Below are positions 4,676-64,000 of a DNA stretch of 64,000 nt, piece by piece; position 1 is the first letter of the stretch; each line of letters begins with the position of its first letter. Under the pieces are notes generated by a model. It did not search any database. It was not told where the DNA came from and saw nothing but the letters and a program-made list of their open reading frames with translations. The stretch lies in the sequence record PP761450.1. One strand, given 5' to 3'. Source of the DNA: Escherichia phage LHE287. The position numbers and the translations under genes were made by a program.

Positions 4676-4704
4676 AGTATACGCCAGTTATTGAAGAAGT
4701 AAAC
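4676..4704 (-). promoter_or_regulatory. T4-early-type sigma70 promoter (GTTTAC-17-TATACT) for the minus-strand gene 4073..4630
   Basis: Minus strand reads TTATTGAATAAA-GTTTAC-ttcttcaataactggcg-TATACT, followed by the RBS and ATG of the downstream gene. Confidence 0.45.
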
Positions 4705-4721
4705 TTTATTCAATAAATATT

Positions 4722-4976: not shown

Positions 4977-5549
4977 TTATTTCTTCAGATCAGGCCACGC
5001 ACCAGAGGTCGCAGTAGACCCAGCTGGGGGAGCAGACTCAAGATCGGGAGAACCCGACTGAGTAACAACAGTGGGATCTTTCTGTACGACCCGAACCCCA
5101 AATTGCTTGAGAGCATCCATAGCTTGGGCTTTTCGCCTGTTGCTTTTGTAGTGGTTGTAGCCTTTGATACCGAATGATGCACTAATTGCTGTCAATAACG
5201 AATAGGTATACCATTCAGGTGCAGTATCTAGTGCCTGAAGGCCACCGATTACTGCTTTGATGAAATCCCCTTTATGATACTCACCAGGGAACAGAATCAG
5301 TTCCACAACCGGAGCAGTCATGACGAGGATGGCGGGTATGGCCAACACGATAGTCCAGAATTCGTCTTTCCAAGACCCGCCGACTTCGGTAATCTTAGAC
5401 AGCTCCCAATCTGAGGAGGACTTGATGGCCTCCAGCTTGACGTCGTGTTTGGCCTGTACAACTTCCCGCTTATATTGGATCAAATCAGTCCCGAGGTTCC
5501 AGAGTTGCTTGAGCACCCCTGGGATCATACCAACGAGGGGGATTGCCAT
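4977..5549 (-). CDS. membrane protein (about 190 aa)
   Basis: Track ORF begins at an alternative codon; internal ATG (MAIPLVGMIPG) has an AAGGAG RBS; hydrophobic N-terminus and a second hydrophobic segment. Confidence 0.5.
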   Translation of the reverse strand: MAIPLVGMIPGVLKQLWNLGTDLIQYKREVVQAKHDVKLEAIKSSSDWELSKITEVGGSWKDEFWTIVLAIPAILVMTAPVVELILFPGEYHKGDFIKAVIGGLQALDTAPEWYTYSLLTAISASFGIKGYNHYKSNRRKAQAMDALKQFGVRVVQKDPTVVTQSGSPDLESAPPAGSTATSGAWPDLKK

Positions 5550-5628
5550 AATAAACTCCTTGGTCAATGAATGGCTCTATGGTTAAATATGCCCACGTGC
5601 TAACGGCACGGATAACCTGGAGAATTAC

Positions 5629-8628
5629 ATGACCGTTTTCTATACGAACGTTGCCCGCAGGGGCAATGACCTGTTGATTCGAATTGCAGATGACATGGGT
5701 AATCGCCGTCTGTTGAAAAAGAAATTCGAACCCACTCTCTATTTACCCACGGCTGACTATTCAAATGTTGAAAAGGTCGGTCTTCTCAATGAACCCCTGG
5801 TAGCCAAGCAGTTCCCTTCCATGCGTGACGCTGACAACTATCTTGAAGAGTACAAGGAAGTCCAGGGTGCTTCCATTTACGGACAGACCGATTATGCATA
5901 CCAGTTCATCGCCCATAGCTTTCCTGGAAAGATTGAGCCGGATTACTCCAACATCCATATTGCTAACCTCGATATCGAAGTGTTCTCCGCCGGGTGGAAA
6001 GACGGAAAGATGACCAAAGGTCCATTCCCTCACCCAACCATTGAGCAGCAGACGTTCAAAGGGAATGAGGCGCGCATTCGCCGCTTCCATAAACAAGTGC
6101 TGGCTAACCATGAATTTGTCCGTGAGCACTTCCCTGGTTCTTTCATCAGCAACAACGTCACTGATCAGTTCCCTATCATTGATAGCAATGGCAAGATCAC
6201 CCAGGACATGAATGCGGCGTTCCCCATTACCCTGATCCAGCTTCAGGATATGGCGACCAATAAGTTCATGGTCTGGGGTATGCCCTGTGCCAAAGATCGT
6301 AACAAATTCGCATACGACACCGAAGACAAAGAGATCGGCGGCCTTGAGGTTGTTTATCAGGAGTTCACCACCGAACAAGATCTGCTGCGCTCGTTCCTAG
6401 ACTTCTGGTCACAGCGTCAGTTCGACGGCTGGACAGGCTGGAACATTGAGACGTTTGATAGCCCTTATCTTGTTGAGCGCATGAATCAGGTTCTGGGTGA
6501 AGCCGAAACATCGCGCCTCAGTCCTTGGGGTATCATTAAGAAGCGTATCATTCGCGATAAGAAGGGCGATATCACGACGTATCAGTTCGTGGGTTGCCCT
6601 ATGCTCGATTATATGCAGATCTACAAGAAACACACGTACACCACCCGTGAACGCTACTCTCTTGACTGGATTGCGTATTGTGAGCTGGGTGAGAAGAAGA
6701 TGGACTACAGTGAGAGCAAGTCGCTCTTTGATCTGTACTTCAACGACTACTGCAAACACACCCGATATGGTATCAAAGACGTTAAGCTGGTATGGCGACT
6801 TGAACAGAAGCTGCGCCTGCTCCAGCTGATGTTCGTCCTGGCCTACCGCACCAAGTCCAACTATGAAGACGGTCTGGGCACTGTGGCTCCGTGGCTGGCC
6901 ATGTGCTACTATCGCCTGTACGAGAAGGGGATAGTGCCTAAGATCCAGCGTGTATACGATGGTCCGACCGACTTTGAGGGCGCATACGTCATGGATGTGA
7001 CACCAGGAATCTACTTCTGGGTCTTCTCGGAAGATTTGAACTCCCTGTATCCTCACATCATACAGCAGTACAACCTCGGTCCAGAGACTATCGTTGGCGA
7101 CAAACACCAGCGCCGCGAGATTATTGAGGCTATGTGTGAAGAGCTGGCTGCTCAGATGAATAACATGGCAACGCCGATGCACAAACGTCGGTTGATGAAA
7201 GCCCTTCACGACAAGCTGTTGCGTGCGGTTGACGAACGCCTGCAGGTTGTTGATGAGTTGGTTGCCCTGGGTGAGTTCCACTTTGAAACCCTGCGCCGCT
7301 ACAACGTGTCGTTCACGCCGAACGTTCAATTCTTCAGCAACGAGAAGATGTCGTTCCTGTCTGAAATCATGCGTGGTATCTACAGCGACCGTAAAGTAGA
7401 GAAGGCCAAGGGTCTGAAGTATGAGCAGTGGGCTGGCTGGTGTAAAGAGATGTCGAAGGGCGACTTCCATCTTGAGTCTGCCATGAAGTCTCGCTACTAT
7501 GACCCAGAGTGGTATGAAGAGCACAAGAACATTGATCTTGATGCCCTGACCGAAGTGATGAAGAAGTGGGAAGACCTGGGCGTTGCTCAAGATACCCTAC
7601 AGCAAGGTCTGAAGATCTTGATGAACGCAGGTTATGGCGCTATCTCGAACGTCTGGTTCAAAGAGTACTTCAACCTCAACATTGCCGAAGCCATCACCAC
7701 ATCCGGTCAGCTGATCAACAAGTGGAACAAGCGTTACACTGATGACTATCTGAACAAGCTGTGTGGTACAACAGGCCAGGACTTCGTCATCGCAGGTGAT
7801 ACCGACTCCAACTACATCTGCATTGAGCGTCTTGTCAAGCAGTTGTGGCCTGATGTTACTGACCATCATGCTATGGTTGATAATATCGACCAATGGATCA
7901 AAGACAACTACCAGCCGAAGACCAATGAGTGGGCACAGCTTCTGTGTAACACCATGAACGGATTTGAACAGCGCATGGTATGGGAGCGTGAGGTCATTGC
8001 GTCAGCCGCTGTCTGGCGAGCCAAGAAGATGTATGCCATGGCCGTGTACGACAGTGAGGGTATCAAGTACGAGAAGCCGAAGATCAAGTTCAAAGGTCTG
8101 GAAGCCCGCAAGTCCACCACGCCGGAATGGTGTCGTGAGCGTCTTGTCAAGTGTTATGAGAAGATCCTACTCGGCACCGAAGAGGAAGTACAGGCGCTCA
8201 TCTCCCAGTACAAAGAGGAGTACATGAAACTCTCTGTAGACGATATCGCCAAGGCTTCCGGCGTGTCCGACATAGAGAAGTGTGTGGCTGCTGACGGATC
8301 GTTCATCTCTGGTGCTCATTTTGCTGCCAAGGCGTGTGTGGGCTACAACCGTCTGGTTGAGAAGAACGAAGATCTGGGTCTACCGATGATCGAGTCGGGT
8401 GATAAGGTACAGATGGTGTTGTTGAAGCCGGGCAACCCGTTTGGGCAGAACTACTTTGCATATCCTGAGTTCTTCCCCGAGGAGCTTGGTCTGGGCAAAT
8501 GGGTGGATTATCAGGCGGCCTTTGAGAAGTCCTTCATTGATCCGATTCAGTCTATCCTCGACGTGGTCGGCTGGTCACACAAGCGCCGTGTGAACCTTCT
8601 TGCCATGATGCAAAAGAAGAAAGGTTGA
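5629..8628 (+). CDS. 43: family B DNA polymerase (T4 gp43-like), 999 aa
   Basis: Exonuclease motif LDIEV, polymerase motif A DLNSLYP, motif C GDTDS; size and T4-like genomic context. Confidence 0.95.
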   Translation: MTVFYTNVARRGNDLLIRIADDMGNRRLLKKKFEPTLYLPTADYSNVEKVGLLNEPLVAKQFPSMRDADNYLEEYKEVQGASIYGQTDYAYQFIAHSFPGKIEPDYSNIHIANLDIEVFSAGWKDGKMTKGPFPHPTIEQQTFKGNEARIRRFHKQVLANHEFVREHFPGSFISNNVTDQFPIIDSNGKITQDMNAAFPITLIQLQDMATNKFMVWGMPCAKDRNKFAYDTEDKEIGGLEVVYQEFTTEQDLLRSFLDFWSQRQFDGWTGWNIETFDSPYLVERMNQVLGEAETSRLSPWGIIKKRIIRDKKGDITTYQFVGCPMLDYMQIYKKHTYTTRERYSLDWIAYCELGEKKMDYSESKSLFDLYFNDYCKHTRYGIKDVKLVWRLEQKLRLLQLMFVLAYRTKSNYEDGLGTVAPWLAMCYYRLYEKGIVPKIQRVYDGPTDFEGAYVMDVTPGIYFWVFSEDLNSLYPHIIQQYNLGPETIVGDKHQRREIIEAMCEELAAQMNNMATPMHKRRLMKALHDKLLRAVDERLQVVDELVALGEFHFETLRRYNVSFTPNVQFFSNEKMSFLSEIMRGIYSDRKVEKAKGLKYEQWAGWCKEMSKGDFHLESAMKSRYYDPEWYEEHKNIDLDALTEVMKKWEDLGVAQDTLQQGLKILMNAGYGAISNVWFKEYFNLNIAEAITTSGQLINKWNKRYTDDYLNKLCGTTGQDFVIAGDTDSNYICIERLVKQLWPDVTDHHAMVDNIDQWIKDNYQPKTNEWAQLLCNTMNGFEQRMVWEREVIASAAVWRAKKMYAMAVYDSEGIKYEKPKIKFKGLEARKSTTPEWCRERLVKCYEKILLGTEEEVQALISQYKEEYMKLSVDDIAKASGVSDIEKCVAADGSFISGAHFAAKACVGYNRLVEKNEDLGLPMIESGDKVQMVLLKPGNPFGQNYFAYPEFFPEELGLGKWVDYQAAFEKSFIDPIQSILDVVGWSHKRRVNLLAMMQKKKG

Positions 8629-8654
8629 TTCAATAAACCAAAGGGGGATATAAT
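8626..8654 (+). promoter_or_regulatory. sigma70-like promoter TTGATT-17-TATAAT with the -10 in a hairpin loop
   Basis: TTGATT overlaps the polymerase stop codon; 17-nt spacer; TATAAT forms the loop of hairpin GGGGGA-TATAAT-TCCCCC. Confidence 0.45.
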
Positions 8655-8690
8655 TCCCCCTGTTAACCCTTTGACAAACAGGTGATTGAA

Positions 8691-9032
8691 ATGAAACTCA
8701 ATAAGATTCTTCTGGTGTGTGCTCTGGCTTTCTCTACCACTGCGTGTTCCACCCTTCTGGACGTTGCTTCTACTGTAGACCTTGACGCGCCGACGTTCAC
8801 CAATGAGCAGGCCGTGTCCAAGATGGAAGACACCATCAAGGCGCATGCAGCACTGGACAACACTACCCCAGGTCCGCTCCAAACTGTCTGCAACTATGAC
8901 GATTCCATCCAGGAAGACGAAACTTACCACTGCATCACCTACGTGAAGCAGGCCTCCGTCGTTCTGTATGCAGATTGTACCGAAGAACAGTGTGTTGCTA
9001 CAGGCTACGATAAAGTTGAGGAAGACAAATGA
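8691..9032 (+). CDS. putative secreted protein or lipoprotein (113 aa)
   Basis: Signal-peptide-like N-terminus MKLNKILLVCALAFSTTAC with Cys after the hydrophobic core; internal ATG chosen for its AGGTGA RBS. Confidence 0.5.
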   Translation: MKLNKILLVCALAFSTTACSTLLDVASTVDLDAPTFTNEQAVSKMEDTIKAHAALDNTTPGPLQTVCNYDDSIQEDETYHCITYVKQASVVLYADCTEEQCVATGYDKVEEDK

Positions 9033-9805
9033 ACAACCTGGTTTGTATCTATGATATGAAATCAAAGGTCGGTGGCCTGTATCGCGTCCTCGTGGATGTT
9101 GACCTGACGTTGGTCGACAGCCTCTCCCCTTGGGTGCAGTGGTTTAACGAAGAGAATCTCAGCTTATCCAAGCATTATGACGGTCATGGACCAGCGCCGT
9201 TCCAGCCGATTACCAAAGAGTGTTATATGTCCCATGCTGGCGACCTGGCTATTCTGATGCGTGAACGTGCGCATCCGGCGTGGCTATACCATGAAGTCCA
9301 ATTGGGGATGCACAAACAACGTGTGCCAAGCGGTAACGATCCTATGGACTGGTGGCGTCGCCCTGACTTGTACGCCAAGATGAACCCACTTCCTGGCGCT
9401 TACGAGTTCCTGGTGAATCTGAAGAAGATTCTGCTCGAAGACTTTGACAATGTTGAATTCATCGCAGTGTCCAAGTGTGAGCCGGAACACGAGCGCAGCA
9501 AGCGCCAGTTTGTCTATGACAAGTTCCCTGGTATCTTCAACGGGTTTGTCAGCACCGACGAAAAGCATCTGCTGGCTGGCGATGTCCTGATTGATGACAA
9601 TCCGAAGTATGTCGAGCCATGCGGCCTGAACAACATCTTTGTCATCTTTGTTCCTCAGGGCAATTATGAAAAACTGGATCTTTCGAATTCGGAAGACATG
9701 CTTTATATTAAACCAGTAGAAGGCCAGAATCACTTCGACTTCCTGAACCGCAATATTGTCGAAGTGGTGAACCGCCTGATTAGTCATTATCAATACGTCC
9801 GATAG
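9029..9805 (+). CDS. HAD-superfamily phosphatase, candidate 5'(3')-deoxyribonucleotidase
   Basis: HAD motif I VDVDLTLVDS near the N-terminus and DD motif VLIDDNPKY; start overlaps the upstream stop. Confidence 0.45.
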   Translation: MNNLVCIYDMKSKVGGLYRVLVDVDLTLVDSLSPWVQWFNEENLSLSKHYDGHGPAPFQPITKECYMSHAGDLAILMRERAHPAWLYHEVQLGMHKQRVPSGNDPMDWWRRPDLYAKMNPLPGAYEFLVNLKKILLEDFDNVEFIAVSKCEPEHERSKRQFVYDKFPGIFNGFVSTDEKHLLAGDVLIDDNPKYVEPCGLNNIFVIFVPQGNYEKLDLSNSEDMLYIKPVEGQNHFDFLNRNIVEVVNRLISHYQYVR

Positions 9806-9814
9806 GAGGACATC

Positions 9815-10120
9815 GTGCAAGAACAATCCAAGTTCGGGGAAACCCCAGACAAGCATTCCGGTGATAGCGACATGGATGGTGTGATTATCTATGTGAACAA
9901 CTTCATTCGTCAGCAGGAGACTCCAACTCCTATCGGTGCAGCCAAGGCTCTTCATGATGTACTGGTGAAGATCGGCCAGCGCTCTGAAGCAGATGAAATC
10001 TTCTATAACTTCGACGACCAGTATAAAGTTAAGTTTGAAGAGAATGGCCACCCACAGGTTGCTGTGTTCTGGGCACCTTGGCTGGGCGGCGTGAGCTGGC
10101 GTATTGAGGATGCTGTGTAA
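9815..10120 (+). CDS. hypothetical protein (101 aa), GTG start
   Basis: GTG start with strong AGGAGGA RBS; stop overlaps the next start (TAATG). Confidence 0.5.
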   Translation: MQEQSKFGETPDKHSGDSDMDGVIIYVNNFIRQQETPTPIGAAKALHDVLVKIGQRSEADEIFYNFDDQYKVKFEENGHPQVAVFWAPWLGGVSWRIEDAV

Positions 10121-11037
10121 TGGCAAAAATTATCGTAGTGAAAGGAACCAGCGGTACGGGTAAGGGCACCCGTGTTGTCCAGTTCATCGAATGGCTGCGC
10201 ACTAAGCTGGAGCCTACCGAACTGACCTACACCGTTGGTGACAAGACTCGCCCGTTTGGCTTGAAGTTCGGAGAGCTGAAGTTAATCTTCGTTGGACAGT
10301 ACACCGTGTCTAACAAATCCGGCCTGGCTTCCTGGACTTCAATGGATGCAATCCATGCTGCTACAGGCTCAGGCGATATTGCTCGTGATCTAATCAAGTG
10401 CTGGTTGGTTCAGGGATACACTCTGGTGTGCGAGGGTGAACCCCTCATGCTGTCGGACAAATGGCGTCCTGAATGGATGTTCAAGAACTATCCGATTGAA
10501 TCATTGGCGCTGCTGTACTTTGCGTACCCCGACCGCTATCAGTACGATGCTCGTATCCGTGGTCGATCTGGTAAAGAAGCAGGGAACTCCGGCTGGTCGC
10601 GCAACGAATCTTACTACAAGGAGTTTGAGAAGTCGAAGGCCGAAATGCTGGCGCTGGGCTTCACTGTGGCTGTTGATGATTACAGCGGACAGGATATCCT
10701 GTATAAATCACCGGATGCCAACACCCAGGAGTTCACGACCAAACAGCAGTCCGAGTTGGCGGTACTACCGTTCGACGCCCCGCTGTGGGTTGTGGGTAAT
10801 GCGATTTGTCATCAGATACGCTCTGAACTGCGCGGTGTTGACATGCACACCAAAGACTTCTACGCCTACTGTGAAACCAATCCGATGACTCGTGAAATCG
10901 GCGGCCAGGATCCTTTGGCGCACAGAGTCCCTGAGAAGCCGCAGAAGGCATCCAAAACTAAAACCAAGGCGAGCGCCCAGCCAGAAGCAACGAAGGCAGC
11001 GTCGCGCTCTCTCCTTGACCTGATGAAGAAGGGGTGA
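10120..11037 (+). CDS. P-loop kinase, paralog of 51529..52188; candidate 5-hmdU DNA kinase
   Basis: Walker A GTSGTGKGT at the N-terminus, Walker-B-like LVCEGEP; shares motif order with the second P-loop protein; basic low-complexity C-terminus. Confidence 0.5.
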   Translation: MAKIIVVKGTSGTGKGTRVVQFIEWLRTKLEPTELTYTVGDKTRPFGLKFGELKLIFVGQYTVSNKSGLASWTSMDAIHAATGSGDIARDLIKCWLVQGYTLVCEGEPLMLSDKWRPEWMFKNYPIESLALLYFAYPDRYQYDARIRGRSGKEAGNSGWSRNESYYKEFEKSKAEMLALGFTVAVDDYSGQDILYKSPDANTQEFTTKQQSELAVLPFDAPLWVVGNAICHQIRSELRGVDMHTKDFYAYCETNPMTREIGGQDPLAHRVPEKPQKASKTKTKASAQPEATKAASRSLLDLMKKG

Positions 11038-11039
11038 TC

Positions 11040-11237
11040 ATGAAACGGTTGTCTAATTATCTGTTGTTCATTGGTCTGGTTATGGCAGCCGTTTCAATGT
11101 GTACTGCCCTAGCCTATCATTTCACCCCTCTGGACTTAACAACCTCAGAGAAGTTGAACGTGACTGTGATGTACTGTATTGGCGCGGTGATGTCTATCGG
11201 CGCTGCTGGTTACAAAATATTCAAGGAACCAAAATGA
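11040..11237 (+). CDS. small membrane protein (about 65 aa)
   Basis: Two hydrophobic segments; ATG with GGGGTGA RBS. Confidence 0.4.
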   Translation: MKRLSNYLLFIGLVMAAVSMCTALAYHFTPLDLTTSEKLNVTVMYCIGAVMSIGAAGYKIFKEPK

Positions 11238-11611
11238 AAATTCAAATTCCTCGCGATGCTGTGGCTGTTGCGATCGACTACACCGGAAACGCCAAGCACA
11301 TTACTGCCGTGCGCCTGATTCCTGAAAAGAACTGCGTCATCCCTCAGTTCCAACTGAATGCCAATCCGTCATCCAAAGACTTCGGCAAGTGGTTGCAGGC
11401 TGCTCCGTTCCGTACCCAGACGAACGCTCAGATGTTCATCTCGGGTAAGACTCACACTGCAGCCCGTCTGTGGTTCGTGACCGCTGACCGTCGCTTTGTC
11501 GATATGTGGGAACGTCCGATGGGGTTCGTGAAGCCGGAAGATATTCAGCTGGCTCCTGAGCCTGAAGCTGTGGCTCCTGAAGAGGAAGCGAAAGATGCAT
11601 CATTTATCTAA
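11234..11611 (+). CDS. hypothetical protein (125 aa)
   Basis: Start overlaps the upstream stop (ATGA); internal ATG of the track ORF 11099..11611. Confidence 0.45.
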   Translation: MKIQIPRDAVAVAIDYTGNAKHITAVRLIPEKNCVIPQFQLNANPSSKDFGKWLQAAPFRTQTNAQMFISGKTHTAARLWFVTADRRFVDMWERPMGFVKPEDIQLAPEPEAVAPEEEAKDASFI

Positions 11612-12830
11612 AATGCCGACGGGCTATACGCCTCCGGCTGAATGGAAGTACCCGATTGACCTGGCTGTTGATTATCGCAAGCCTGAGAATCGCATGTACC
11701 TGCTCAAGGCTTGGGTGGAGGCGCTGTCCTACACAGAAGAGCACAACCAGCAGATGCGTCTGATGGACTATGCGATCGAAGTCACTGAAGGCATCAGCCT
11801 CGAACAGAAAGTCGAGCGCAAGATCTGGATGGCATTCCTGTGGGGTTGTTGCTATAACGCCGTCGGGCCGTGGACGATCTACAGTGAGTTCCCTGTGCCA
11901 CCTCAGTCTAAGGAAGAGATGCAGCGCTTCTCTGATTGGTATAATCTGAACTTTGATCGCATGCGATTCGATACCGACTGTCGCTACCGCAAGTCCAAGA
12001 TGATTCCGTGTGTTCAGTCCTATATTGACTGGCTGGCTGGTCGTACTCAATATGACGCTTTCCGTGGGATGTTGGTGTGCATCGATAAGACAGAACAATT
12101 CACCCAGCTGTGGGACACGGCGATGTCCTGGAAATACTTCGGTCGCCTGAGCGCCTGGAACTTCCTAGAAGCCCTGAACATGGTCTTCGGGAACGAATAC
12201 ACCATTGACGTCCCTGGCTTCATGCTGCGTGATCGTGATGGAAGCGAGTCCAACCGTAATGGCGCGGCGTTCTTGTCCAACCGTGACGATTGGGTGACTA
12301 AACACGGGAAGAAAAAGATCAACGGTTGTCCTATCACGGATGAAGAGTGTGACATCCTTGAGGCCGACCTTGAGCAGGCGTTCCAGGATTGTGTGGCTGA
12401 GTTCGGGCACCTGACGTTCATCAACCGCCTGAACTTTGAAACCTCCGGCGCTTGTTGGCTGAAGAAATTCTTCCGACTGAAGAATACCCGTTACATCGGG
12501 TGGGACGCAGAGCGTACCTGGGATGAGATAGACTACATGGAACGCGTCTGGCCTGAATACTCCTGCGCAGCGCTCTGGGAAGCCCGTTCGCTCTGGCTGC
12601 CAGATACCCTGTTGTGCGAAAAGGCTCCTGCAGGGCACGTTCCAGGCGTCCAGAAGTGGAAGATGCCTGTATTCTTTGAGACTGGTGTTCCTCTGCATAT
12701 CTGGCACCTGCAAAAGGGTACGCGCTGGGAACCGTCCGAGGTGTGTACGAACCTGAAGATGCCTGTGCGTAAGGTTGAGGACAAGTCGAAGTCCAGCAGT
12801 GTCAACCTCATGGCACTCTTGAAACGCTGA
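11595..12830 (+). CDS. hypothetical protein (411 aa), Trp/Cys-rich; candidate DNA-modification enzyme
   Basis: ATG with GAGGAAG RBS; co-transcribed downstream of the P-loop kinase; no motif recognised by eye. Confidence 0.5.
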   Translation: MHHLSKMPTGYTPPAEWKYPIDLAVDYRKPENRMYLLKAWVEALSYTEEHNQQMRLMDYAIEVTEGISLEQKVERKIWMAFLWGCCYNAVGPWTIYSEFPVPPQSKEEMQRFSDWYNLNFDRMRFDTDCRYRKSKMIPCVQSYIDWLAGRTQYDAFRGMLVCIDKTEQFTQLWDTAMSWKYFGRLSAWNFLEALNMVFGNEYTIDVPGFMLRDRDGSESNRNGAAFLSNRDDWVTKHGKKKINGCPITDEECDILEADLEQAFQDCVAEFGHLTFINRLNFETSGACWLKKFFRLKNTRYIGWDAERTWDEIDYMERVWPEYSCAALWEARSLWLPDTLLCEKAPAGHVPGVQKWKMPVFFETGVPLHIWHLQKGTRWEPSEVCTNLKMPVRKVEDKSKSSSVNLMALLKR

Positions 12831-12863
12831 TATAAATATCCTCGCCTATAAAGCGAGGATATT
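12831..12863 (+). promoter_or_regulatory. T4-type late promoter TATAAATA overlapping an 11-bp hairpin that sequesters the downstream RBS
   Basis: TATAAATA at 12831-12838; perfect inverted repeat AATATCCTCGC-ctataaa-GCGAGGATATT; GAGGA RBS lies in the right arm; ATG at 12867. Confidence 0.5.
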
Positions 12864-12866
12864 ATC

Positions 12867-13034
12867 ATGTTACAAGATCTGCTGGTTTATGCGCTTCCTG
12901 GCGCGGTTGTCGGCTTCATCGCTGGTGCTCTGGTCTTCCGTAAACACGCGCAAGATGGTGAAGTGATTGTTCAGAAAGGCAAAGAGATTCTGGACCAGAT
13001 CGAAGCCAAACTGGAAGAGCTGAAGAAAAAGTAA
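12867..13034 (+). CDS. small single-pass membrane protein (55 aa), probably late-expressed
   Basis: MLQDLLVYALPGAVVGFIAGALVF hydrophobic helix then a charged coiled-coil-like tail; absent from the ORF track because shorter than 60 aa. Confidence 0.45.
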   Translation: MLQDLLVYALPGAVVGFIAGALVFRKHAQDGEVIVQKGKEILDQIEAKLEELKKK

Positions 13035-13057
13035 TCTGACTGGGTTGCTTCCTTCAA

Positions 13058-13099
13058 TAAAGGGGAATGGGTTATTATTAGCCCGTTCCCCTTTCTTTT
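13058..13099 (+). terminator. rho-independent terminator
   Basis: AAAGGGGAATGGG-ttattattag-CCCGTTCCCCTTT followed by CTTTTT. Confidence 0.6.
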
Positions 13100-13201
13100 T
13101 GCAAGAATATACATCATGGCAATGCAACGAATTGAAGATATGTCTCTACTCAACATGGAAGCGACTTTTAGCGCTTCCGTTATCGTCATGGGAGAATCCA
13201 A

Positions 13202-13420
13202 ATGATCAAGAATACCCGAACAATGAAGCGCGCAATCGCTCACTGTGTCCATTCAGTGGCAACTATTATGTTCCGCCACCACATCACATTTGATGAAGCA
13301 CTGGACCCACAGTACCATGAAGAGCGTTGGGATTTGTTGTTAAAGAACGGCGCCAATCCTGAGCATAAAGATCAACTCCTTGGGATGACCAAGGCGCAGC
13401 TCGTCGGTGAATCCAAATGA
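13202..13420 (+). CDS. hypothetical protein (72 aa)
   Basis: ATG with GGAGA RBS; stop overlaps the next start. Confidence 0.45.
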   Translation: MIKNTRTMKRAIAHCVHSVATIMFRHHITFDEALDPQYHEERWDLLLKNGANPEHKDQLLGMTKAQLVGESK

Positions 13421-14532
13421 TCTACCTCCTGTTTGGTGTGCCATTGGTACTGGCTATCCTGTTTGTGACCTACCATCGCAAGACCCATGAGCCGAAAGAG
13501 ACTCTGATAGCGACCGCGATTGTAGTGGTGCTATCCTGTCTGATTCAGGCGGGGACTTATGCTGCGTTCTCCCTTGGCAGTTCAGGGGATGTTGAGATCC
13601 TGAACGGGTACGTCACTGCAAAGGAGCGGAATAAGGTGAGCTGTGAGCATTCATATGAATGCAACTGCTACTACACCACATCGTGCTCCGGCTCCGGCAG
13701 CAGCAAGTCCTGTACCCGCACTCGCCATTGCAGTACATGTTATGAGCATTCATACGACATAGATTGGGATGTGCTGACAACCGTTGGCAACCTGACGATT
13801 GATCGTATTGATCGCCGTGGTCTTAGTCAGCCCCCGCGCTGGGCGCAGGTTCAGATCGGCGAACCCGCAGCCCGTGAGCATTCCTACATGAACTATGTGC
13901 TGGGTAACAAGGACTCTCTGTTCTCTCGTTCAGACCAGCAGTTTGCTGAGCGCTTCAAAGACAAGATTCCGAAGTATCCCGAAGTCTATGACTACTATCG
14001 TGTCACTCGTGTACTGAATGTGTCTGGTCTGGCGTTACCGACCACATACTGGAACGATTATCTGAACAATACTCTGAAAACATTAGGTGCTTCACGTCAG
14101 GTCAATATCGTCTGGGTTGTGACTTCCGGCCAGCCAGTTGAATACTTCCAGGGCTTGGTCTATGCTTGGGATGGTGGTAAAAAGAACGACGTTATCGTCG
14201 TGACCGACATCAGCAAAGATCTGAAGATCAACTGGGGTAAGAGCACTTCGTTCGCTGATGGTATGCATAACCGTGAACTCCATTCTCGTAATGGCATGGC
14301 TCTCACAGGTCACGACATGGGCGTCGGTGTCATGGCTGATGTTGTCGCTAACATCACCAAAGGCTACAACCGCGTTGAGATGAAGGAAATGGAGTACCTG
14401 AAGTGGCGGGAACTCAAGACCTGGGAAGTTGTGATTGTTGTTCTGCTAGGCTGTCTGCCGTTCACCGCAATTTTCATATTACAGCGAATGGAGTACAATG
14501 GTGGCCGTCGTCGTTATCCGTTTAATTTTTAA
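13417..14532 (+). CDS. Cys-rich membrane protein with N- and C-terminal TM helices (371 aa)
   Basis: N-terminal helix MIYLLFGVPLVLAILFV, repeated EHSY(E)C / C-x-C motifs, C-terminal helix VVIVVLLGCLPFTAIFIL; sits immediately upstream of the LemA-like gene. Confidence 0.5.
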   Translation: MIYLLFGVPLVLAILFVTYHRKTHEPKETLIATAIVVVLSCLIQAGTYAAFSLGSSGDVEILNGYVTAKERNKVSCEHSYECNCYYTTSCSGSGSSKSCTRTRHCSTCYEHSYDIDWDVLTTVGNLTIDRIDRRGLSQPPRWAQVQIGEPAAREHSYMNYVLGNKDSLFSRSDQQFAERFKDKIPKYPEVYDYYRVTRVLNVSGLALPTTYWNDYLNNTLKTLGASRQVNIVWVVTSGQPVEYFQGLVYAWDGGKKNDVIVVTDISKDLKINWGKSTSFADGMHNRELHSRNGMALTGHDMGVGVMADVVANITKGYNRVEMKEMEYLKWRELKTWEVVIVVLLGCLPFTAIFILQRMEYNGGRRRYPFNF

Positions 14533-14550
14533 TCAAAAGAGGAAGTAAGA

Positions 14551-15120
14551 ATGTCTCAATCTAAGGGTATCGCAACAGGTTGGATAGTTGGTTTGGCTTT
14601 GCTGGGTATAGTGATTCTCGGCATCAGTACAGTCATCAGCTACTTCAACGACTTCAACCGCACTGAGCAGCAGGTCAAGAAGTTCAACAAAGACTCCGAG
14701 AACTACCTGAGCAACTACACGCTCAAAGTTCAGGAGACGGCGCAGATTCCTGACATGTATAAAGACGGCCTGAAGGAAGTGATCAAAGGCACGTTCGAAG
14801 GGCGTTATGGCGCTGATGGTTCCAAGGCCGTCATGCAGTGGATCCAGGAGCAGAATATTCAGTTCGATTCCAGCCTGTACAAAGAGATCCAGGTGGTGAT
14901 CAGTTCTGGGCGTGATGAATTCCGCATCAGCCAGACCAAGAAGCTGGATATCTGCACAATATACGAAACCAAGCTGGCTCAGTTCCCTGGTTCGTTGATT
15001 GCTGGCATGTTCGGCTACCCGCGTATCGACCTTGACAAGACCTGCCAGGTGGTGAGCGATACCCGTACCCAGGCCGCGTTCGACGCTGGTATTCAGAAAC
15101 CGATTAACTTCAAAGGCTGA
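14551..15120 (+). CDS. LemA-family-like membrane protein (189 aa)
   Basis: N-terminal TM helix; C-terminal region RISQTKKLDICTIYETKLAQFPGSLIAGMFGY matches the LemA pattern R-I-x(n)-FP-x(4)-A-x(2)-FG-F/Y; AAGAGGAAG RBS. Confidence 0.45.
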   Translation: MSQSKGIATGWIVGLALLGIVILGISTVISYFNDFNRTEQQVKKFNKDSENYLSNYTLKVQETAQIPDMYKDGLKEVIKGTFEGRYGADGSKAVMQWIQEQNIQFDSSLYKEIQVVISSGRDEFRISQTKKLDICTIYETKLAQFPGSLIAGMFGYPRIDLDKTCQVVSDTRTQAAFDAGIQKPINFKG

Positions 15121-15124
15121 TGTC

Positions 15125-15538
15125 ATGAGCGTGAAACTCACTGAATCCCTGACACTGGACCAACAGCAGGCTCTGTTGGATGAAGTAGTGATCTCTGCTA
15201 TCAAGCAAGGGATTATCAAAGACGACTTGTTGATTGACCGCCCCGAGATGATCCATCATCTGGTGGTGTGCCTGGGTGAGGCCAGCAACCCTCGCAAGAA
15301 GATCGTGCTGTTTACTGATGGTGTGATCCTTCCGAGCGGGAAATGTGCGTTCTTGGATGTGGTTGAACATCCGAACACGAAAGGCAAAGAGGTCAAGACT
15401 TCTGTTCCGGTGACTCCATACACCGAGGGTGTTGACCAGCTGTCTTGGTTTGAGACAATCAACACCATTTATGTGATGACACCGGACGGTAAACCAGTTC
15501 GGGATCTACGAGGCGGCAAAGTAGAATCTGAAGACTAA
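15125..15538 (+). CDS. hypothetical protein (137 aa)
   Basis: ATG 5 nt after the upstream stop; no recognisable motif. Confidence 0.5.
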   Translation: MSVKLTESLTLDQQQALLDEVVISAIKQGIIKDDLLIDRPEMIHHLVVCLGEASNPRKKIVLFTDGVILPSGKCAFLDVVEHPNTKGKEVKTSVPVTPYTEGVDQLSWFETINTIYVMTPDGKPVRDLRGGKVESED

Positions 15539-15552
15539 TCGTTCTTCAATAA

Positions 15553-15586
15553 AAGGGGATAGGGTATTATTGCTCTATCCCTTTTT
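15553..15586 (+). terminator. rho-independent terminator
   Basis: GGGGATAGGG-tattattg-CTCTATCCC followed by TTTTT; preceded by a TTCAATAAA box. Confidence 0.6.
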
Positions 15587-15650
15587 CGTGGACAAGGAAC
15601 ATGACAGACAATCCAAGAAAGATGAAGAACAAACGCCGGAGCAAACGCTG

Positions 15651-16106
15651 ATGACTACCAAACCAACTTATGAAGAACTGGCGCAGACCGTTCTGACCTT
15701 TGACAGCACCCTGAAGAATCTTTACAAGGTGCTGGGAAATAACCCGACTTCAGAGTCAGGAGAAACAGTTAATCTTCTGTTACTGATGAACCCTCTGTGG
15801 GATATTGATGCCACTATTGCTGCCCTGAAAGATCCTGGGGCACAGGAGCCGGAGCCAACCCCTGTATCCACTGGGATTCAGAAATACCTGGAGAACTTTG
15901 ACGAGTACTCCTTCACCGATCTGCTCCTGCGTGATATGATCAACACAGAACGCCGTCGCCAGGGGAAGAACTGTCCTGTGGTCCAGTCTGATGAAGAAAT
16001 CGAGCAGAGTGTTCGAGAAGATTTGAACAGCACCTACTCGCCGATCGATCTGGCTGTAATGATTGTTCAGGCACTGTCCTATGCTGCCAAGGGGGAAACG
16101 AAATGA
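15651..16106 (+). CDS. hypothetical protein (about 151 aa)
   Basis: First in-frame ATG downstream of the terminator, with GGAG upstream; the track ORF starts at an alternative codon inside the terminator. Confidence 0.45.
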   Translation: MTTKPTYEELAQTVLTFDSTLKNLYKVLGNNPTSESGETVNLLLLMNPLWDIDATIAALKDPGAQEPEPTPVSTGIQKYLENFDEYSFTDLLLRDMINTERRRQGKNCPVVQSDEEIEQSVREDLNSTYSPIDLAVMIVQALSYAAKGETK

Positions 16107-16303
16107 AGAAATCATCTGCGGCTGTTGCTGCTATGCTAGCGCTGTCAGAAATGGAAATCGTCGCCGCGCATCGTGGTGATGATATGTGGGGGCGTCGTTA
16201 CACTCAGGGTGGCACACCCGGCGAACCGGGACATGGTCGTCCATCTGTAACCCGCAAGAAGAAGGCGAAGACTCATGGAAAGAACAAGCGCAAACGTAAG
16301 TGA
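16103..16303 (+). CDS. small basic protein (66 aa)
   Basis: C-terminal TRKKKAKTHGKNKRKRK; start overlaps the upstream stop (ATGA). Confidence 0.4.
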   Translation: MKKSSAAVAAMLALSEMEIVAAHRGDDMWGRRYTQGGTPGEPGHGRPSVTRKKKAKTHGKNKRKRK

Positions 16304-16444
16304 GGAGTGCCTGCAGAAAGATCCTTCAGGCACTCCAAAGTTGGCTAGACCATGGGTGATGTTTGATGACCGACGAGATAATCTTCCTTCGAGCAGAGGT
16401 CGCTCGATTAAGTAAAACCGAACCCAAAAAGTAGAGGATATGTT

Positions 16445-16795
16445 ATGAGTTCTATTGAACAGCTGATCACCCCACAGTATGTGTACTCCAACATTGTTGA
16501 GCACCTGCGCTCACAGTTGAACGTGGGAACCCTGAACAGCACTGACCTGAAAGATCTACAAATCGTTAAAGTCGAAGTGGCGGCCTTTGGTTCTCGTTAT
16601 CACTTCAATGTGGAATACACGCGTGAAGAGAAGCAGGAAAGCTCTATGTTGCTTCTTTCCCACCCACCGAAGATAGCACCGCCAAAGGTTGAGATGGTGA
16701 AACGCACCATCATCGGCTATCTGGAAGAGAAGTTGGAACCTGGTGCCCAGCGCCCAACATTCGACTTCCAGGCGCGATTTGCCACCGAAGATTGA
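16445..16795 (+). CDS. hypothetical protein (116 aa)
   Basis: ATG with GAGGA RBS; followed by a strong terminator. Confidence 0.5.
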   Translation: MSSIEQLITPQYVYSNIVEHLRSQLNVGTLNSTDLKDLQIVKVEVAAFGSRYHFNVEYTREEKQESSMLLLSHPPKIAPPKVEMVKRTIIGYLEEKLEPGAQRPTFDFQARFATED

Positions 16796-16802
16796 TCTGA
16801 AC

Positions 16803-16829
16803 AAAGCCCTCAGCCGAGGGCTTTTTCAA
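16803..16829 (+). terminator. rho-independent terminator
   Basis: AAAGCCCTC-agcc-GAGGGCTTT followed by TT. Confidence 0.7.
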
Positions 16830-16901
16830 TTGAAGACACCCACCGTATTATACCCACTCAACCAATATGTTCCCCTTTGACATTGATAGGATTTCTATAC
16901 T

Positions 16902-19658: not shown

Positions 19659-19689
19659 TAGTCCTGTTAACCAACGTGGGAACTACAAG

Positions 19690-29230: not shown

Positions 29231-29641
29231 ATGAAATTACTGGGATATTTTCGTGAACTCCCAACGGGAACTGAAGGCAAGTTGTTCTCACAGGTGAAGG
29301 GGGATGACATCGGTGATACGATGATTCCATTGTACACTCGTGAACTTCCTGTCGAAGGTGCCTGGGAGCGCCGTGTGGTCGCTGCCGCCAACAAATATGG
29401 TGATGTGATCGTCGTTGCCGACCGTCACCACAGCCGATTCATGAACAGCCAGCTCAAGATCCTGAAAGAAGCAGGCGTCATTAAATCCACCCATACCCGC
29501 GAACAGGGATTCATCGACAACCAGGGCAACTTCCTCACTCGTGAAGAGGCGTGCATCGTAGCCCGTGAAGCTGGACAGATCAATCAGGTGCGCCTGAAGA
29601 CAACCCCTTTCCGCGAACTCTTTTCCGAAGACCTCTATTGA
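29231..29641 (+). CDS. hypothetical protein (136 aa)
   Basis: ATG-initiated ORF. Confidence 0.5.
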   Translation: MKLLGYFRELPTGTEGKLFSQVKGDDIGDTMIPLYTRELPVEGAWERRVVAAANKYGDVIVVADRHHSRFMNSQLKILKEAGVIKSTHTREQGFIDNQGNFLTREEACIVAREAGQINQVRLKTTPFRELFSEDLY

Positions 29642-29691
29642 AGAAAAAGGCGGTATTATTACCGCCTCGACCTCTTGTTTGGTAACATCAA

Positions 29692-33078: not shown

Positions 33079-33133
33079 ATAAAGATTCAGCGGTTATTGA
33101 AGAAGGGGGAGTATATACTTCCCTTCGTTTATT
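33075..33133 (+). terminator. tandem hairpins (terminator region)
   Basis: CTGAAT-aaag-ATTCAG, then GAAGGGGGAGTA-tata-TACTTCCCTTC followed by GTTTATT. Confidence 0.5.
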
Positions 33134-35211: not shown

Positions 35212-35261
35212 AATCTAGTCCTAAATAGCCATAACACTCTATCTATTTAAGGGCTGAGACC

Positions 35262-42931: not shown

Positions 42932-43044
42932 GTGGTGTCTCCAGGGTTATATGTGCTGCTATTATAACCCTGGGGACTTCAATAGATTATTGGCGGGTGT
43001 GAGATTTTGCCTGACCGATAATGAGGTCAGTGTGTAGTCCTCAG

Positions 43045-43386: not shown

Positions 43387-43640
43387 AGTCTGTTCCTTCT
43401 GTAAGTTCCCATGTATTATATGGGTGAATAGTTTATTGAATTATTTGTTATGAAACCCAGAGCCTTGCGGACTTCTTCACGATTTTTAATTTCGGTCTGA
43501 GCCTCTGTGCGATTAATCTAGCGCTTGTGATGTCGGGAGAGGGCTTTGTAAACAAGCCTTGGCGTCAATGGCATCGATTAGACAACGGATCTCAGCGCAT
43601 CAGAGGCTTGCCCAACAGCCAGTTGAAATACTTGCGCATG

Positions 43641-45192: not shown

Positions 45193-45245
45193 TACAGATT
45201 AAATATTAGGCGATTATTTCTTGAAAGTAAAGTTATTGAAGTAAA

Positions 45246-45268
45246 AAGCCCAGTACTTGACTGGGCTT
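45246..45268 (-). terminator. rho-independent terminator for minus-strand transcripts
   Basis: AAGCCCAGT-acttg-ACTGGGCTT with a T-run on the minus strand. Confidence 0.6.
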
Positions 45269-45285: not shown

Positions 45286-45600
45286 TTATTCGCCACTGAC
45301 ATTCGGATCTCGATCGGGCTTGGCGTTCGGGAATAGAGACTCGTATAAGTCTTGATATTTCTCGCTCGTTTCGATCGTCTTATGGTAAGTTCCATTGGCG
45401 CGGTCGGATACAACCTTGCGCAAGTCGCTGGCCTTGATACCCGTGTCTTTCGCCAGCTCGGCCAGAGTCTCAGTGATGAAAGTCTGTTCCGACTTGATGC
45501 GGACCTGGGCAGCACGACAGTTTTCAATTGCACCTATCAGCTTGCGACGGGATTCAGGATCAGATGGTAGTACATAAAAGCCGATTTGTTCTACAGACAT
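45286..45600 (-). CDS. hypothetical protein (104 aa)
   Basis: ATG-initiated ORF. Confidence 0.45.
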   Translation of the reverse strand: MSVEQIGFYVLPSDPESRRKLIGAIENCRAAQVRIKSEQTFITETLAELAKDTGIKASDLRKVVSDRANGTYHKTIETSEKYQDLYESLFPNAKPDRDPNVSGE

Positions 45601-45951: not shown

Positions 45952-46015
45952 GATGTGCTCCTGGTTTACATTCAGATCATAGAATTATACCCTATGACCC
46001 GCTTTATTGAATTGC

Positions 46016-52188: not shown

Positions 52189-52263
52189 AAACTGCTCCGA
52201 TAAACAAAAGGAGCTGCTATTATAGCAGCCCCTTCATCTTTTGAACAGTTTCTGAACTTAAAT

Positions 52264-53100: not shown

Positions 53101-53170
53101 AATAAAAACCCTTTCGTTATTAAGACCGTATCCGCGGCATATTGTTGTTCTGACTGTGTAGTGAGAACAT

Positions 53171-53198
53171 AATATACTGCATTTTCATAGATGTAAAC
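53171..53198 (-). promoter_or_regulatory. T4-early-type promoter GTTTAC-16-TATATT
   Basis: Minus strand reads TTCAATAAAAAGTA-GTTTAC-atctatgaaaatgcag-TATATT upstream of gene 52264..53100. Confidence 0.4.
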
Positions 53199-53289
53199 TA
53201 CTTTTTATTGAAAAGAAAGTTAACACCTAAGTGTTATAAGGTGCGCGACCAAGCGGAGCGCGAACTTGCGTGAATATTAACTTTCTACG

Positions 53290-57149: not shown

Positions 57150-57248
57150 TTCTTAATTTCCTCTGTTTCCGCCCCTCAGGGCTATTCTGTTACATGTATT
57201 TTCAGTTTTCTACAAAGCGGGGTAATTATACCCCGATCTTACATTGAA

Positions 57249-58280: not shown

Positions 58281-58867
58281 ATACCTCTGTTGAAGTCTGG
58301 ATTATTCTCAATGAAGTAAGAGCCACAAGCCATTATCGCAAACGAATCCACGAGGTCATCGATTGGCTTGGGATCCTTAACTTCCAACATATCCATTATA
58401 CCGCGCATGCTAACATTGAACAGCGACTCGAAGTGAGCGATCATGGCGTGTTTATCCGCGTTGCCCTTGTCGGTGAACATCTTCTTCACATGGGATGGCG
58501 TCACGATCTGGAAGTCGAAATTGTTACGGCGCAGGGCTTGCTTCAACAGTGAGGTATTCTCTGCGGTCTGGCATATGTTGTTGGAGTTCTTAGAGTTGCC
58601 CATAGCATACCCTTCAAGAGTGATCGCATCCGGCTTCTCAGTCAACAGGACAGCCTCAGCCCATTTACAGATGTTATAGAAGCGTTCTTCTGGGGTCTCC
58701 CACTTCGGTTGCTTCATGATAAGGATGTTCTGACGAATCTGAGTGCAGTACTTCTCCACAGTATAATATGCGTAGAAGCGCAGATGATCAAAATCAAGAG
58801 GGTCTTTATCATCCCAGAAGCACAGGGATGGACAGCCATAGGAGTAGTCGATTCCGCAATATTTCAT
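58277..58867 (-). CDS. RuvC-like Holliday junction resolvase (putative)
   Basis: N-terminal YCGIDYSYG, ITLEGYAMG, and C-terminal DDLVDSFAIMACG resemble the RuvC catalytic motifs. Confidence 0.4.
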   Translation of the reverse strand: MKYCGIDYSYGCPSLCFWDDKDPLDFDHLRFYAYYTVEKYCTQIRQNILIMKQPKWETPEERFYNICKWAEAVLLTEKPDAITLEGYAMGNSKNSNNICQTAENTSLLKQALRRNNFDFQIVTPSHVKKMFTDKGNADKHAMIAHFESLFNVSMRGIMDMLEVKDPKPIDDLVDSFAIMACGSYFIENNPDFNRGI

Positions 58868-63894: not shown

Positions 63895-64000
63895 GATATA
63901 GTTCCTGCTTTCAATTTGTGGCGAATGCCAATGAATTACTGGGAAGTATAAGCGCAGGGATTATAGAAGTAAAGCCCCTCAATGAGGGGCTTTGGCTTGT

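Follow-up and report, generated by a model that had tools for sequence, protein, structure and literature searches.

The middle promoters of phage T4 combine a MotA box, (a/t)(a/t)(a/t)TGCTT(t/c)A, located at -30, with a sigma70 -10 element, and depend on MotA and AsiA (PMC4122927). T4-like phages also carry composite terminator-promoter cassettes, termed PeSL and PmSL (Arbiol 2010, PMC2839356; Comeau 2014, PMC4122927), and early promoters with the T4/PST consensus TTTACW-N17-TAYWAT (PMC4122927). Here, we analysed a stretch of 64,000 nucleotides from Escherichia phage LHE287 (PP761450.1), in the following called the window, in which a recurrent box, TTCAATAAA, is found at a fixed distance upstream of a sigma70-type -10 hexamer that often lies in the loop of a hairpin. 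According to megablast comparisons, this phage is placed in the Ackermannviridae, subfamily Aglimvirinae, and is Agtrevirus-like. With moderate confidence, we interpret these modules as an Ackermannviridae-specific promoter class, in which the box would replace the -35 element and which would be fused to RNA hairpins and probably depend on an activator.

The exact box is present seven times in the window (4709+, 8629+, 13053+, 15545+, 43432-, 46003- and 53204-), compared to a mean of 0.56 in dinucleotide shuffles (n=100), none of which reached seven copies; the variant TTGAATAAA adds one site at 4705-. The original prediction had described the box as recurrent, intergenic and oriented like the local genes; we found it to be non-random, and its intergenic position and orientation agree with this description. 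The sites it listed are real, but their positions were off by 1-6 nt. It had also proposed a spacer of about 11 nt to TATAAT or TATTAT, and the spacer is indeed exactly 11 nt at 8629, 13053, 15545 and 43432 and 13 nt at 46003. The pattern TTCAATA-N13-TATWAT has four matches in the window and 0.00 across 100 shuffles, and the looser TTCAAW-N14-TAWWWT has five compared to 0.12 expected. The histogram of distances between TTCAATA and the -10 in the window contains a single peak offset, with four cases. Counted from the 9-mer the modal spacer is 11 nt, which corresponds to 13 nt from the 7-mer (range 9-13 nt); counted from the hexamer TTCAAT it is 14 nt in the window and also in Escherichia phage AV101 and Vibrio phage VAP7.

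Allowing one or two mismatches in the box yielded four extra direct modules (A6, A7, A8 and the doubtful A9), and the inverted box (TnTATTGAA) at 11-12 nt from a -10 yielded three modules, compared to 0.08 in shuffles. In total, the window contains 12 modules of box plus -10, nine direct and three inverted, all co-oriented with the downstream gene; the numbers of degenerate modules vary with the pattern chosen. All 12 have TATAAT, TATTAT or TATACT as -10 hexamer, and in nine of them the end of the -10 is 28-37 nt upstream of a start codon with a Shine-Dalgarno sequence. Direct and inverted boxes have the palindromic skeleton TTnAnTnAA in common; given this skeleton, a symmetric DNA-binding protein could read the box in either orientation. 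The modules are the following (z, RNA folding compared to shuffles):

A1, 8629..8661, plus strand: box TTCAATAAA (8629-8637), 11-nt spacer and TATAAT (8649-8654) at the apex of a hairpin without T-run (8642-8661, z -2.76); begins immediately 3' of the DNA polymerase stop codon and is conserved in 14 related loci.
A2, 13053..13100, plus strand: box 13053-13061 and TATTAT 13073-13078, start codon about 37 nt past the -10; 16-bp hairpin (13059-13094, z -6.62) followed by a T-run, the top terminator-like site, kept in relatives.
A3, 15545..15591, plus strand: box 15545-15553 and TATTAT 15565-15570; hairpin with T-run (15551-15586, z -6.42), kept in relatives.
A4, 43408..43440, minus strand: box 43432-43440 and TATAAT 43415-43420; weak 5-bp hairpin (43408-43424, z -0.96), start codon at 43386, 28 nt past the -10.
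A5, 45973..46011, minus strand: box 46003-46011 directly 3' of the stop codon of a gp41-like helicase gene, 13-nt spacer and TATAAT 45984-45989 at the apex of a hairpin (45973-46001, z -5.42).
A6, 52198..52245, minus strand: degenerate box TTCAAAAGA (52237-52245; TTCAATAGA in relatives), 12-nt spacer and TATAAT 52219-52224; hairpin with T-run (52207-52235, z -4.86), upstream of a 219-aa HMUDK-like gene and of the thymidylate synthase operon.
A7, 57218..57248, minus strand: degenerate box TTCAATGTA (57240-57248), 9-nt spacer and TATAAT 57225-57230 held by a hairpin (57218-57235, z -3.80); precedes the gene for a gp32-like single-stranded DNA-binding protein (SSB).
A8, 16803..16851, plus strand: terminator-like hairpin 16803-16824 preceding box TTCAATTGA (16825-16833), 12-nt spacer and TATTAT 16846-16851, the -10 being outside the hairpin; upstream of rIIA.
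A9, uncertain candidate, 58395..58420, minus strand: TTCAATGTT-N11-TATAAT within a coding region.
I1, 29634..29667, plus strand: inverted box TCTATTGAA (29634-29642), 11-nt spacer and TATTAT 29654-29659 at the apex of a hairpin (29648-29667, z -3.80); precedes an 80-aa DUF7234 gene.
I2, 33093..33125, plus strand: inverted box GTTATTGAA (33093-33101), 12-nt spacer and TATACT 33114-33119; hairpin 33104-33125 (z -3.17), start codon 28 nt past the -10.
I3, 42941..42986, minus strand: inverted box TCTATTGAA (42978-42986), 11-nt spacer and TATAAT 42961-42966; hairpin 42941-42973 (z -5.08), DNA ligase start codon 29 nt past the -10.

The -10 is placed at the hairpin apex in 10 of the 12 modules, among them all five with an exact box (8629, 13053, 15545, 43432 and 46003), which agrees with the earlier observation that the hexamer forms the loop. 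For the window as a whole, 12 of 59 TATWAT hexamers are located at the apex of a hairpin of at least 5 bp, compared to 3.4 for random positions. The module stems are 5-16 bp long and the loops, which bear all or part of the sigma70 -10 hexamer, 3-11 nt. For nine of the ten elements tested, folding is significantly better than in shuffles (z -2.8 to -6.6), with 43432 being the weak one (-0.96). The distance between box and hairpin varies from 0 to 7 nt while that between box and -10 stays fixed, and modules without a hairpin were found at A8, at AV101 154049 and at VAP7 1567 and 71545. A GC-rich hairpin followed by a T-run, as in Rho-independent terminators, is present at A2, A3, A6 and weakly at I2 (of the exact-box sites only 13053 and 15545), but not at A1, A4, A5, A7, I1 and I3. 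The proposal that the promoters overlap terminators is therefore correct for three to four of the ten hairpins; the rest have no T-run though their stems are kept by compensatory changes. A further difference to these terminators is that the short arbitrary loop is replaced by the conserved -10. G.U pairs are found on the sense strand only (A2, A5 and I3), and the pairing has therefore apparently been selected in the sense-strand RNA; at A2, the two G.U pairs on the plus strand indicate an RNA hairpin.

The modules are conserved far beyond the window. Across the complete genome of AV101, no 8-mer is more enriched between genes than TTCAATAA: of its 31 copies, 20 fall in the 14% of non-coding sequence. 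When TTCAATA is paired with the -10-like hexamer that follows it in AV101, a spacing of 13 nt stands out sharply (6 compared to 0.085 for shuffled sequence); spacings of 7-9 nt form another cluster, which corresponds to early-type promoters. Additional AV101 modules are located upstream of nrdA, prs and conserved hypothetical genes; genes downstream of modules in the window or AV101 thus comprise rIIA, the gp32-like SSB gene, ligase, the td operon, nrdA and prs. In the structural operons of AV101 one looser match was seen, between the tail sheath and tail tube genes (-10 TAAAAT), and otherwise none. We furthermore compared related loci from IMG/VR, 14 around the 13-15 kb region and 22 around the helicase gene, which belong to Agtrevirus, Limestonevirus, Kuttervirus, a group at about 86% helicase identity and MAM1-like phages. 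In these 36 loci, box and -10 are almost invariant while the neighbouring proteins are 70-88% identical and the stems change by compensatory substitutions. In the A5 orthologs, the box and GGTATAAT are invariant and five of nine stem pairs are changed on both sides; MAM1-like loci have a wholly different stem at this place (GGTGGTATAATTACCAC), with the -10 still at the apex. Conservation across genera extends to I3, with its inverted box, its -10 and its stem pairing. Most modules are located at strictly conserved, syntenic junctions. The at least 120 single IMG/VR matches to TTCAATAAA-N11-TATWAT are mostly unrelated and uninformative. A different kind of change was seen at the ortholog of A2 in one locus (L010, 9320-9375, corresponding to window 13053-13100), where the hairpin is inverted to its reverse complement ggggaaCgggTTAATAATAAcccAttcccc and TATTAT is lost.

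More distant relatives show the same organisation. Over the first 50 kb of the genome of Serratia phage MAM1, TTCAATAA once more ranks first among intergenic 8-mers, and the DNA polymerase and rIIA junctions carry TTCAAT-N16-TATACT/TATAAT, the first of them with the -10 in a new hairpin. Vibrio phage VAP7 (Vapseptimavirus, 42% GC) has a DNA polymerase that is only 48% identical to that of the window. It shows no excess of TTCAATAA, and its intergenic k-mers include CTTCAAAAGT. VAP7 has its own box, TTCAAAAGT, whose geometry and gene junctions match those of the window: aaaacTTCAAAAGTT-N9-11-TATAAT/TATTAT/TAATAT was found nine times compared to 0.28 expected, with the -10 often in the loop of a terminator hairpin, and modules are located just after the DNA polymerase gene, just before rIIA (the place of A8, which bears a module in MAM1 as well) and before the SSB gene. 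That VAP7 has another box at corresponding positions is as expected for a phage-specific promoter class. The junctions and geometry shared with VAP7 and MAM1 suggest that the architecture is family-wide, with TTCAA as common core and a box that varies between genera. The fixed distance between the box and a sigma70-type -10 that the original prediction had proposed is supported, and the motif is conserved across genera.

The comparison with T4 shows clear similarities. Like MotA-dependent promoters, the modules have a TAnnnT -10, no -35 and a box of about 9 bp whose 7-mer core begins some 20 nt upstream of the -10, give or take 1-2 nt, and their distance between box and -10 agrees with the T4 value of about 12 +/- 1 bp. 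The T4 sites are located before rIIA, gene 32, ligase, nrd and td, often right behind terminators, as is the case here. MotA-dependent transcripts of T4 begin 6-8 nt past the -10 some minutes into the infection. However, the boxes of the window (TTCAATAAA) and of VAP7 (TTCAAAAGT) are unrelated to TGCTTTA, homologs of MotA and AsiA were not detected at the sequence or profile level in the window phage, the window box is also found inverted and inside or upstream of early promoters, and the -10 is embedded in a hairpin. The likeness to MotA middle promoters that the original prediction had noted therefore applies to the geometry (7-mer starting about 20 nt before the -10, no canonical -35) but does not extend to the activator. 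Since the box can be located upstream of a -35, in a spacer or in inverted orientation, it is not simply an analogue of the MotA box.

With the PeSL and PmSL cassettes, the modules share that short intergenic units of stem-loop and promoter are repeated through the early regions. In PeSL and PmSL, however, the stem-loop is located just upstream of the promoter, whereas the module hairpin encloses the -10; a hairpin upstream of the promoter is present only at A8 and at two true PeSL-like units (45203-45268 and about 63945-63990; hairpin, TTTACT-N17-TAnnnT). In addition, the modules have no -35, and their box differs from the Mot box of the PmSLs. Association with insertions and deletions (indels), another PeSL/PmSL feature, was seen for A4, which is located at an indel boundary among relatives (400 nt are inserted immediately upstream in locus L027, and the module is absent from other Kutterviruses), whereas the other modules are located at conserved syntenic junctions. 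The modules would thus work like MotA-box middle promoters and are built like PeSL/PmSL, yet they lack defining features of both.

A canonical -35 is missing from the modules. Nothing is conserved 16-18 nt upstream of their -10, and no TTGACA-like -35 is found there. A generic sigma70 scan likewise returned no excess of promoter-like sites (27 compared to 20.0 +/- 4.2 and 30 compared to 22.9 +/- 4.3) and caught only A1 (TTGATT-N18) and A8 among the modules, by chance overlap. Promoters read by sigma70 have spacers of 16-18 bp, and a hexamer at 14 bp is out of the region 4 contact in the normal holoenzyme. With TTCAAT at 14 bp being beyond the reach of region 4, with no usable -35 and with a box that differs between phage genera, we infer that a phage-encoded factor is involved, as in T4 sigma appropriation.

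Promoter activity, its timing, the need for a factor and the function of the hairpin are predictions from sequence. According to this model, the box of 7-9 bp (core TTCAAT, full TTCAATAAA), located at about -32 to -24, would substitute for the -35 hexamer, and the sigma70-type -10 (TATAAT or TATTAT) would follow 11 nt past the box (range 9-13). Host RNA polymerase would require a phage-encoded box-binding factor at these modules, making them a middle-type class that works like the T4 MotA-box promoters. The predicted starts would generate leaders of about 20-30 nt before genes for DNA replication and nucleotide metabolism and before small genes of the early region. The fixed distance from box to -10, the variable distance from box to stem and the hairpin-free modules argue for a promoter class at the DNA level with the box at about -30 replacing the -35, and the strict orientation, the constant leader length, the missing -35 and the genus-specific box point in the same direction. 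The hairpin, having been selected in the sense-strand RNA, would act on transcripts arriving from upstream. Formed in such read-through transcripts, it would be a terminator at A2, A3 and A6 with their T-run, and elsewhere perhaps an attenuator or a 3'-end stabiliser. Transcripts from the embedded -10 would start in the 3' arm and, having no 5' arm, could not form the hairpin; a cassette of about 40 nt would thus close one transcription unit and open the next. Speculatively, the same factor could repress early promoters via a box inside the spacer. A bolder version, which we put forward only tentatively, is that the modules are an unrecognised "-30 box" class for post-early transcription, read by a factor unrelated to MotA, and as such an independent invention of the T4 middle strategy; here the box would work in both orientations and silence early promoters from the spacer, and the -10 would be displayed on the hairpin apex of the 40-nt cassette.

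Several points weigh against the proposed promoter class. In the searched literature, no transcript 5' ends or expression data are available for any phage of the Ackermannviridae, and no MotA, AsiA or other candidate activator was found by searches at the sequence and profile level. Across all sites and genera, the spacing between TTCAAT and -10 ranges from 12 to 16 nt; the latter value applies to two of the four sites found in MAM1 (DNA polymerase and rIIA junctions) and is compatible with TTCAAT being a weak ordinary -35. Moreover, early-type promoters can have the box either internally, with 5-7 nt to the -10, or upstream of the -35 at varying distances, and its position is therefore not uniform. 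An unlikely alternative is that the modules are ordinary host sigma70 early promoters that tolerate TTCAAT as a weak -35 despite a short, variable spacer, need no factor from the phage and have hairpins that are squeezed-in neighbouring terminators. TTCAAT and TTGACA have TT.A.. in common, A8 can be read as TTTTCA-N17-TATTAT, and A1 as TTGATT-N18-TATAAT. A1 has been annotated in this way in the AG3 genome paper, whose Table S2 (PMC3121705) assigns A1 (TTGAtt-N18-TATAAT), A6 and two early-type sites to the ordinary sigma70 early promoters. But the modal spacing of 14 nt in window, AV101 and VAP7 is outside the sigma70 range, no conserved hexamer is present 16-18 nt upstream, and a distinct, well-formed early class (TTTACW-N16/17) exists in this phage. 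In addition, the inverted box is kept at the same spacing, and the box differs between phage genera though -35 recognition by sigma70 is conserved among hosts.

The invariant hairpin apex could also be an RNA signal rather than a -10. It is rather improbable, in our estimation, that the module is an RNA element and not a promoter, in which a hairpin with a UAUAAU-type apex after UUCAAUAAA acts on the upstream transcript as terminator or attenuator, 3'-end stabiliser, target of an RNase or of RegA/RegB-type proteins, or protein-binding site, the likeness to a -10 being incidental. The covarying stems, the G.U pairs confined to the sense strand, the significant folding in nine of ten cases, the three or four T-runs and the RegA homolog encoded by the phage are in line with such an element. 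It does not account for the fixed distance from box to -10 next to a box-to-stem distance of 0-7 nt, nor for hairpin-free modules that retain box and spacing (A8, AV101 154049, VAP7 71545). Read as RNA, the inverted box would have another sequence, but it is retained at an unchanged spacing; in addition, a complete TAnnnT hexamer always occupies the apex, 28-37 nt upstream of a start codon. Finally, the box could have no role in initiation and be mainly the A/T tract of bidirectional terminators or a PeSL-type homology patch for cassette shuffling, which we regard as very improbable. Its T-rich reverse complement could be an antisense terminator tail (site 8661-8642, minus strand), with TTTATTGAA giving such a tail to the antisense reading of A1 and A3; for shuffling speak the position of A4 at an indel boundary, with the L027 insertion and the module-free Kutterviruses, and the fact that PeSL/PmSL cassettes mediate such shuffling in T4-like phages (PMC4122927). 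Both ideas leave the fixed -10 distance, the hairpin-free modules, the conserved C, the TCAAT core and the genus-specific box of VAP7 unexplained, and most modules are found at strictly conserved, syntenic junctions.

For the preferred reading as activator-dependent promoters, the search for the activator is of importance. The MotA/AsiA-like activator that the original prediction had envisaged was searched for with phmmer, with a profile of 87 MotA sequences and with Pfam, and no homolog was detected. T4 MotA and AsiA gave E > 0.5 in phmmer searches against all open reading frames of AV101 and the window (Arn.3 was found at 6e-14). The MotA profile, all of whose sequences are from Straboviridae, gave a best E of 5 against all open reading frames of AV101, the window and VAP7, and the Pfam families of MotA (PF09114/PF09158) and AsiA were found neither among 30 selected proteins nor in the precomputed Pfam matches of about 60 kb (three 20-kb blocks of the window). 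A 104-aa protein (45286-45600, minus strand) has an HTH-like (helix-turn-helix) segment, is assigned to PHROG 639 "transcriptional regulator" and resembles T4 DsbA (PF11126 Phage_DsbA, weak). It is conserved in VAP7 (33% identity), its gene is located downstream of the predicted promoter A5, and no sequence relative was found in the PDB. DsbA is linked to late promoters. This protein was kept only as a weak candidate for the activator. VAP7 encodes a sigma70-family sigma factor of 415 aa with regions 1.2, 2 and 4 (L021 31326-32573, record 81326-82573), whose gene is adjoined by an XRE-annotated gene; AV101 and the window contain no homolog of either, and the sigma factor was therefore rejected as the shared factor. 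Host sigma32 (CTTGAAA...CCCCAT), sigmaE (GGAACTT-N16-TCAAA), sigma28 and sigma54 consensus sequences, compared by eye, do not fit in spacing and second element. N4-type hairpin promoters have a 5-7 bp stem and a 3-nt loop and are read by a phage single-subunit RNA polymerase. This type was rejected as well, as the stems and loops differ, the loops bear a sigma70 -10 and the AV101 annotation contains no RNA polymerase gene.

The box is also associated with a separate promoter set, TTTACW-N16/17-TAWWNT, with five members in the window compared to 0.43 expected and eight in AV101. The sites at 4676-4703, 45203-31, 53169-97 and 63945-73 fit the T4/PST early consensus. All but the last of these differ from it in that they add the TTCAATAA box, either in the spacer (TTTACTTCTTCAATAA), as also at 116.7, 79.4 and 72.8 kb of AV101, or just upstream of the -35 (45232-40 and 53204-12). 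Several early-type promoters directly follow a terminator hairpin in PeSL style. The sites with a box are:

4676-4703 (element 4676..4717), minus strand: early-like promoter TTTACT-N16-TATACT with TTCAATAAC at 4687-4695 in the spacer and TTGAATAAA at 4705-4713 upstream.
45203..45268, minus strand: PeSL-like cassette with terminator hairpin 45246-45268, box TTCAATAAC 45232-45240 and TTTACT-N17-TAATAT 45203-45231.
53169..53212, minus strand: box TTCAATAAA 53204-53212, 6 nt from the promoter TTTACA-N17-TATATT 53169-53197.

A box in the spacer of the 4676..4704 promoter had been claimed before and is present, but the copy there is TTCAATAAC (4687-4695, minus strand), located inside TTTACT-N16-TATACT. 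The site 53204, which had been listed among the occurrences of the box, is not an N11-type site, since its box is located 6 nt upstream of the TTTACA-N17-TATATT promoter; this promoter is Porf069 in the AG3 paper (PMC3121705). Positions 4705-4717 form a 13-bp palindrome, TTTATTCAATAAA, in which the box overlaps its own inverse and which is the source of the 4709+ match. It is located in an AT-rich region upstream of the early-type promoter, and a similar layout is seen at about 72.75 kb in AV101. A box-free PeSL-like unit is found at 63945-63990 (minus strand), with the hairpin GCCCCTCATTGAGGGGC followed by TTTACT-N17-TATACT, and the same unit is present at about 66.4 kb in AV101.

The searched literature contains no description of the box motif, no paper that joins TTCAATA to Ackermannviridae names and no hairpin-promoter cassettes of this kind for the family. 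A 2024 review of the Ackermannviridae does not mention promoters, and the promoters in the LIMEstone paper were predicted solely from T4 consensus sequences. Ackermannviridae (ViI, CBA120, LIMEstone, AG3 and about 170 other genomes) are widely used in biocontrol, detection and engineering, while their transcription programme is essentially unstudied. A family-wide promoter motif would provide a map of transcription units and explicit sites for the mapping of transcription starts, and would correct the earlier annotation of single instances as ordinary sigma70 early promoters. The box could serve as bait for the factor by which a T4-related lineage with no detectable MotA/AsiA would redirect the host RNA polymerase, and the modules as compact terminator-promoter parts for phage engineering.

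With regard to the phage itself, window positions 5000-20000 matched 282 phage records in megablast, with Escherichia phages A221, AV101 and ZQ1 and Enterobacter phage fGh-Ecl02 as best matches (95-97.5% identity). The DNA polymerases of the window and fGh-Ecl02 share 99.6% identity, and Escherichia phage YX22 has a protein that matches one of the window at 100% identity. Gene calls were made with our own heuristic and checked against the AV101 annotation; the gene content includes rIIA/rIIB, DNA polymerase, topoisomerase, ligase, helicase, UvsX, td, gp32, gp33 and baseplate genes. The gene for a SegD-like homing endonuclease that is present in AV101 (L001 10124-10810) is absent from the window (10120 region), and endonuclease insertions also distinguish A221, ZQ1 and others. 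The megablast matches are split into several pieces because these insertions differ among relatives. At its left end, the window carries genes for tRNA-Met (CAT) and tRNA-Tyr (GTA) at 230-306 and 561-644, and tRNA-Asn, tRNA-Tyr and tRNA-Ser are annotated at the equivalent place in AV101.

Further signals were observed in the window. CTAAATAcCC was found three times compared to 0.24 expected, before plus strand genes (2860-2869, 2949-2958 and 35221-35230), and there are copies of TATAAATA too; positions 12831-12838 and about 55113 belong to the same set. These sites resemble the T4 gp55-type late promoters, and homologs of gp55 and gp33 are present in the family. The Pfam families HMUD2, ADDT and HMUDK_HMUD1, which are thymidine hypermodification enzymes, match products of 10120-12830 and 51529-52188, and T-rich promoter elements therefore likely carry modified bases in virion DNA. 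In the leader of the gp32-like gene (57150-57200, minus strand), a hairpin GCCCTGAGGGGC, which is conserved in all relatives, is located between the -10 of A7 and the start codon, about 75 nt downstream; by analogy, it may be a translational operator like that of the T4 gene 32 leader.

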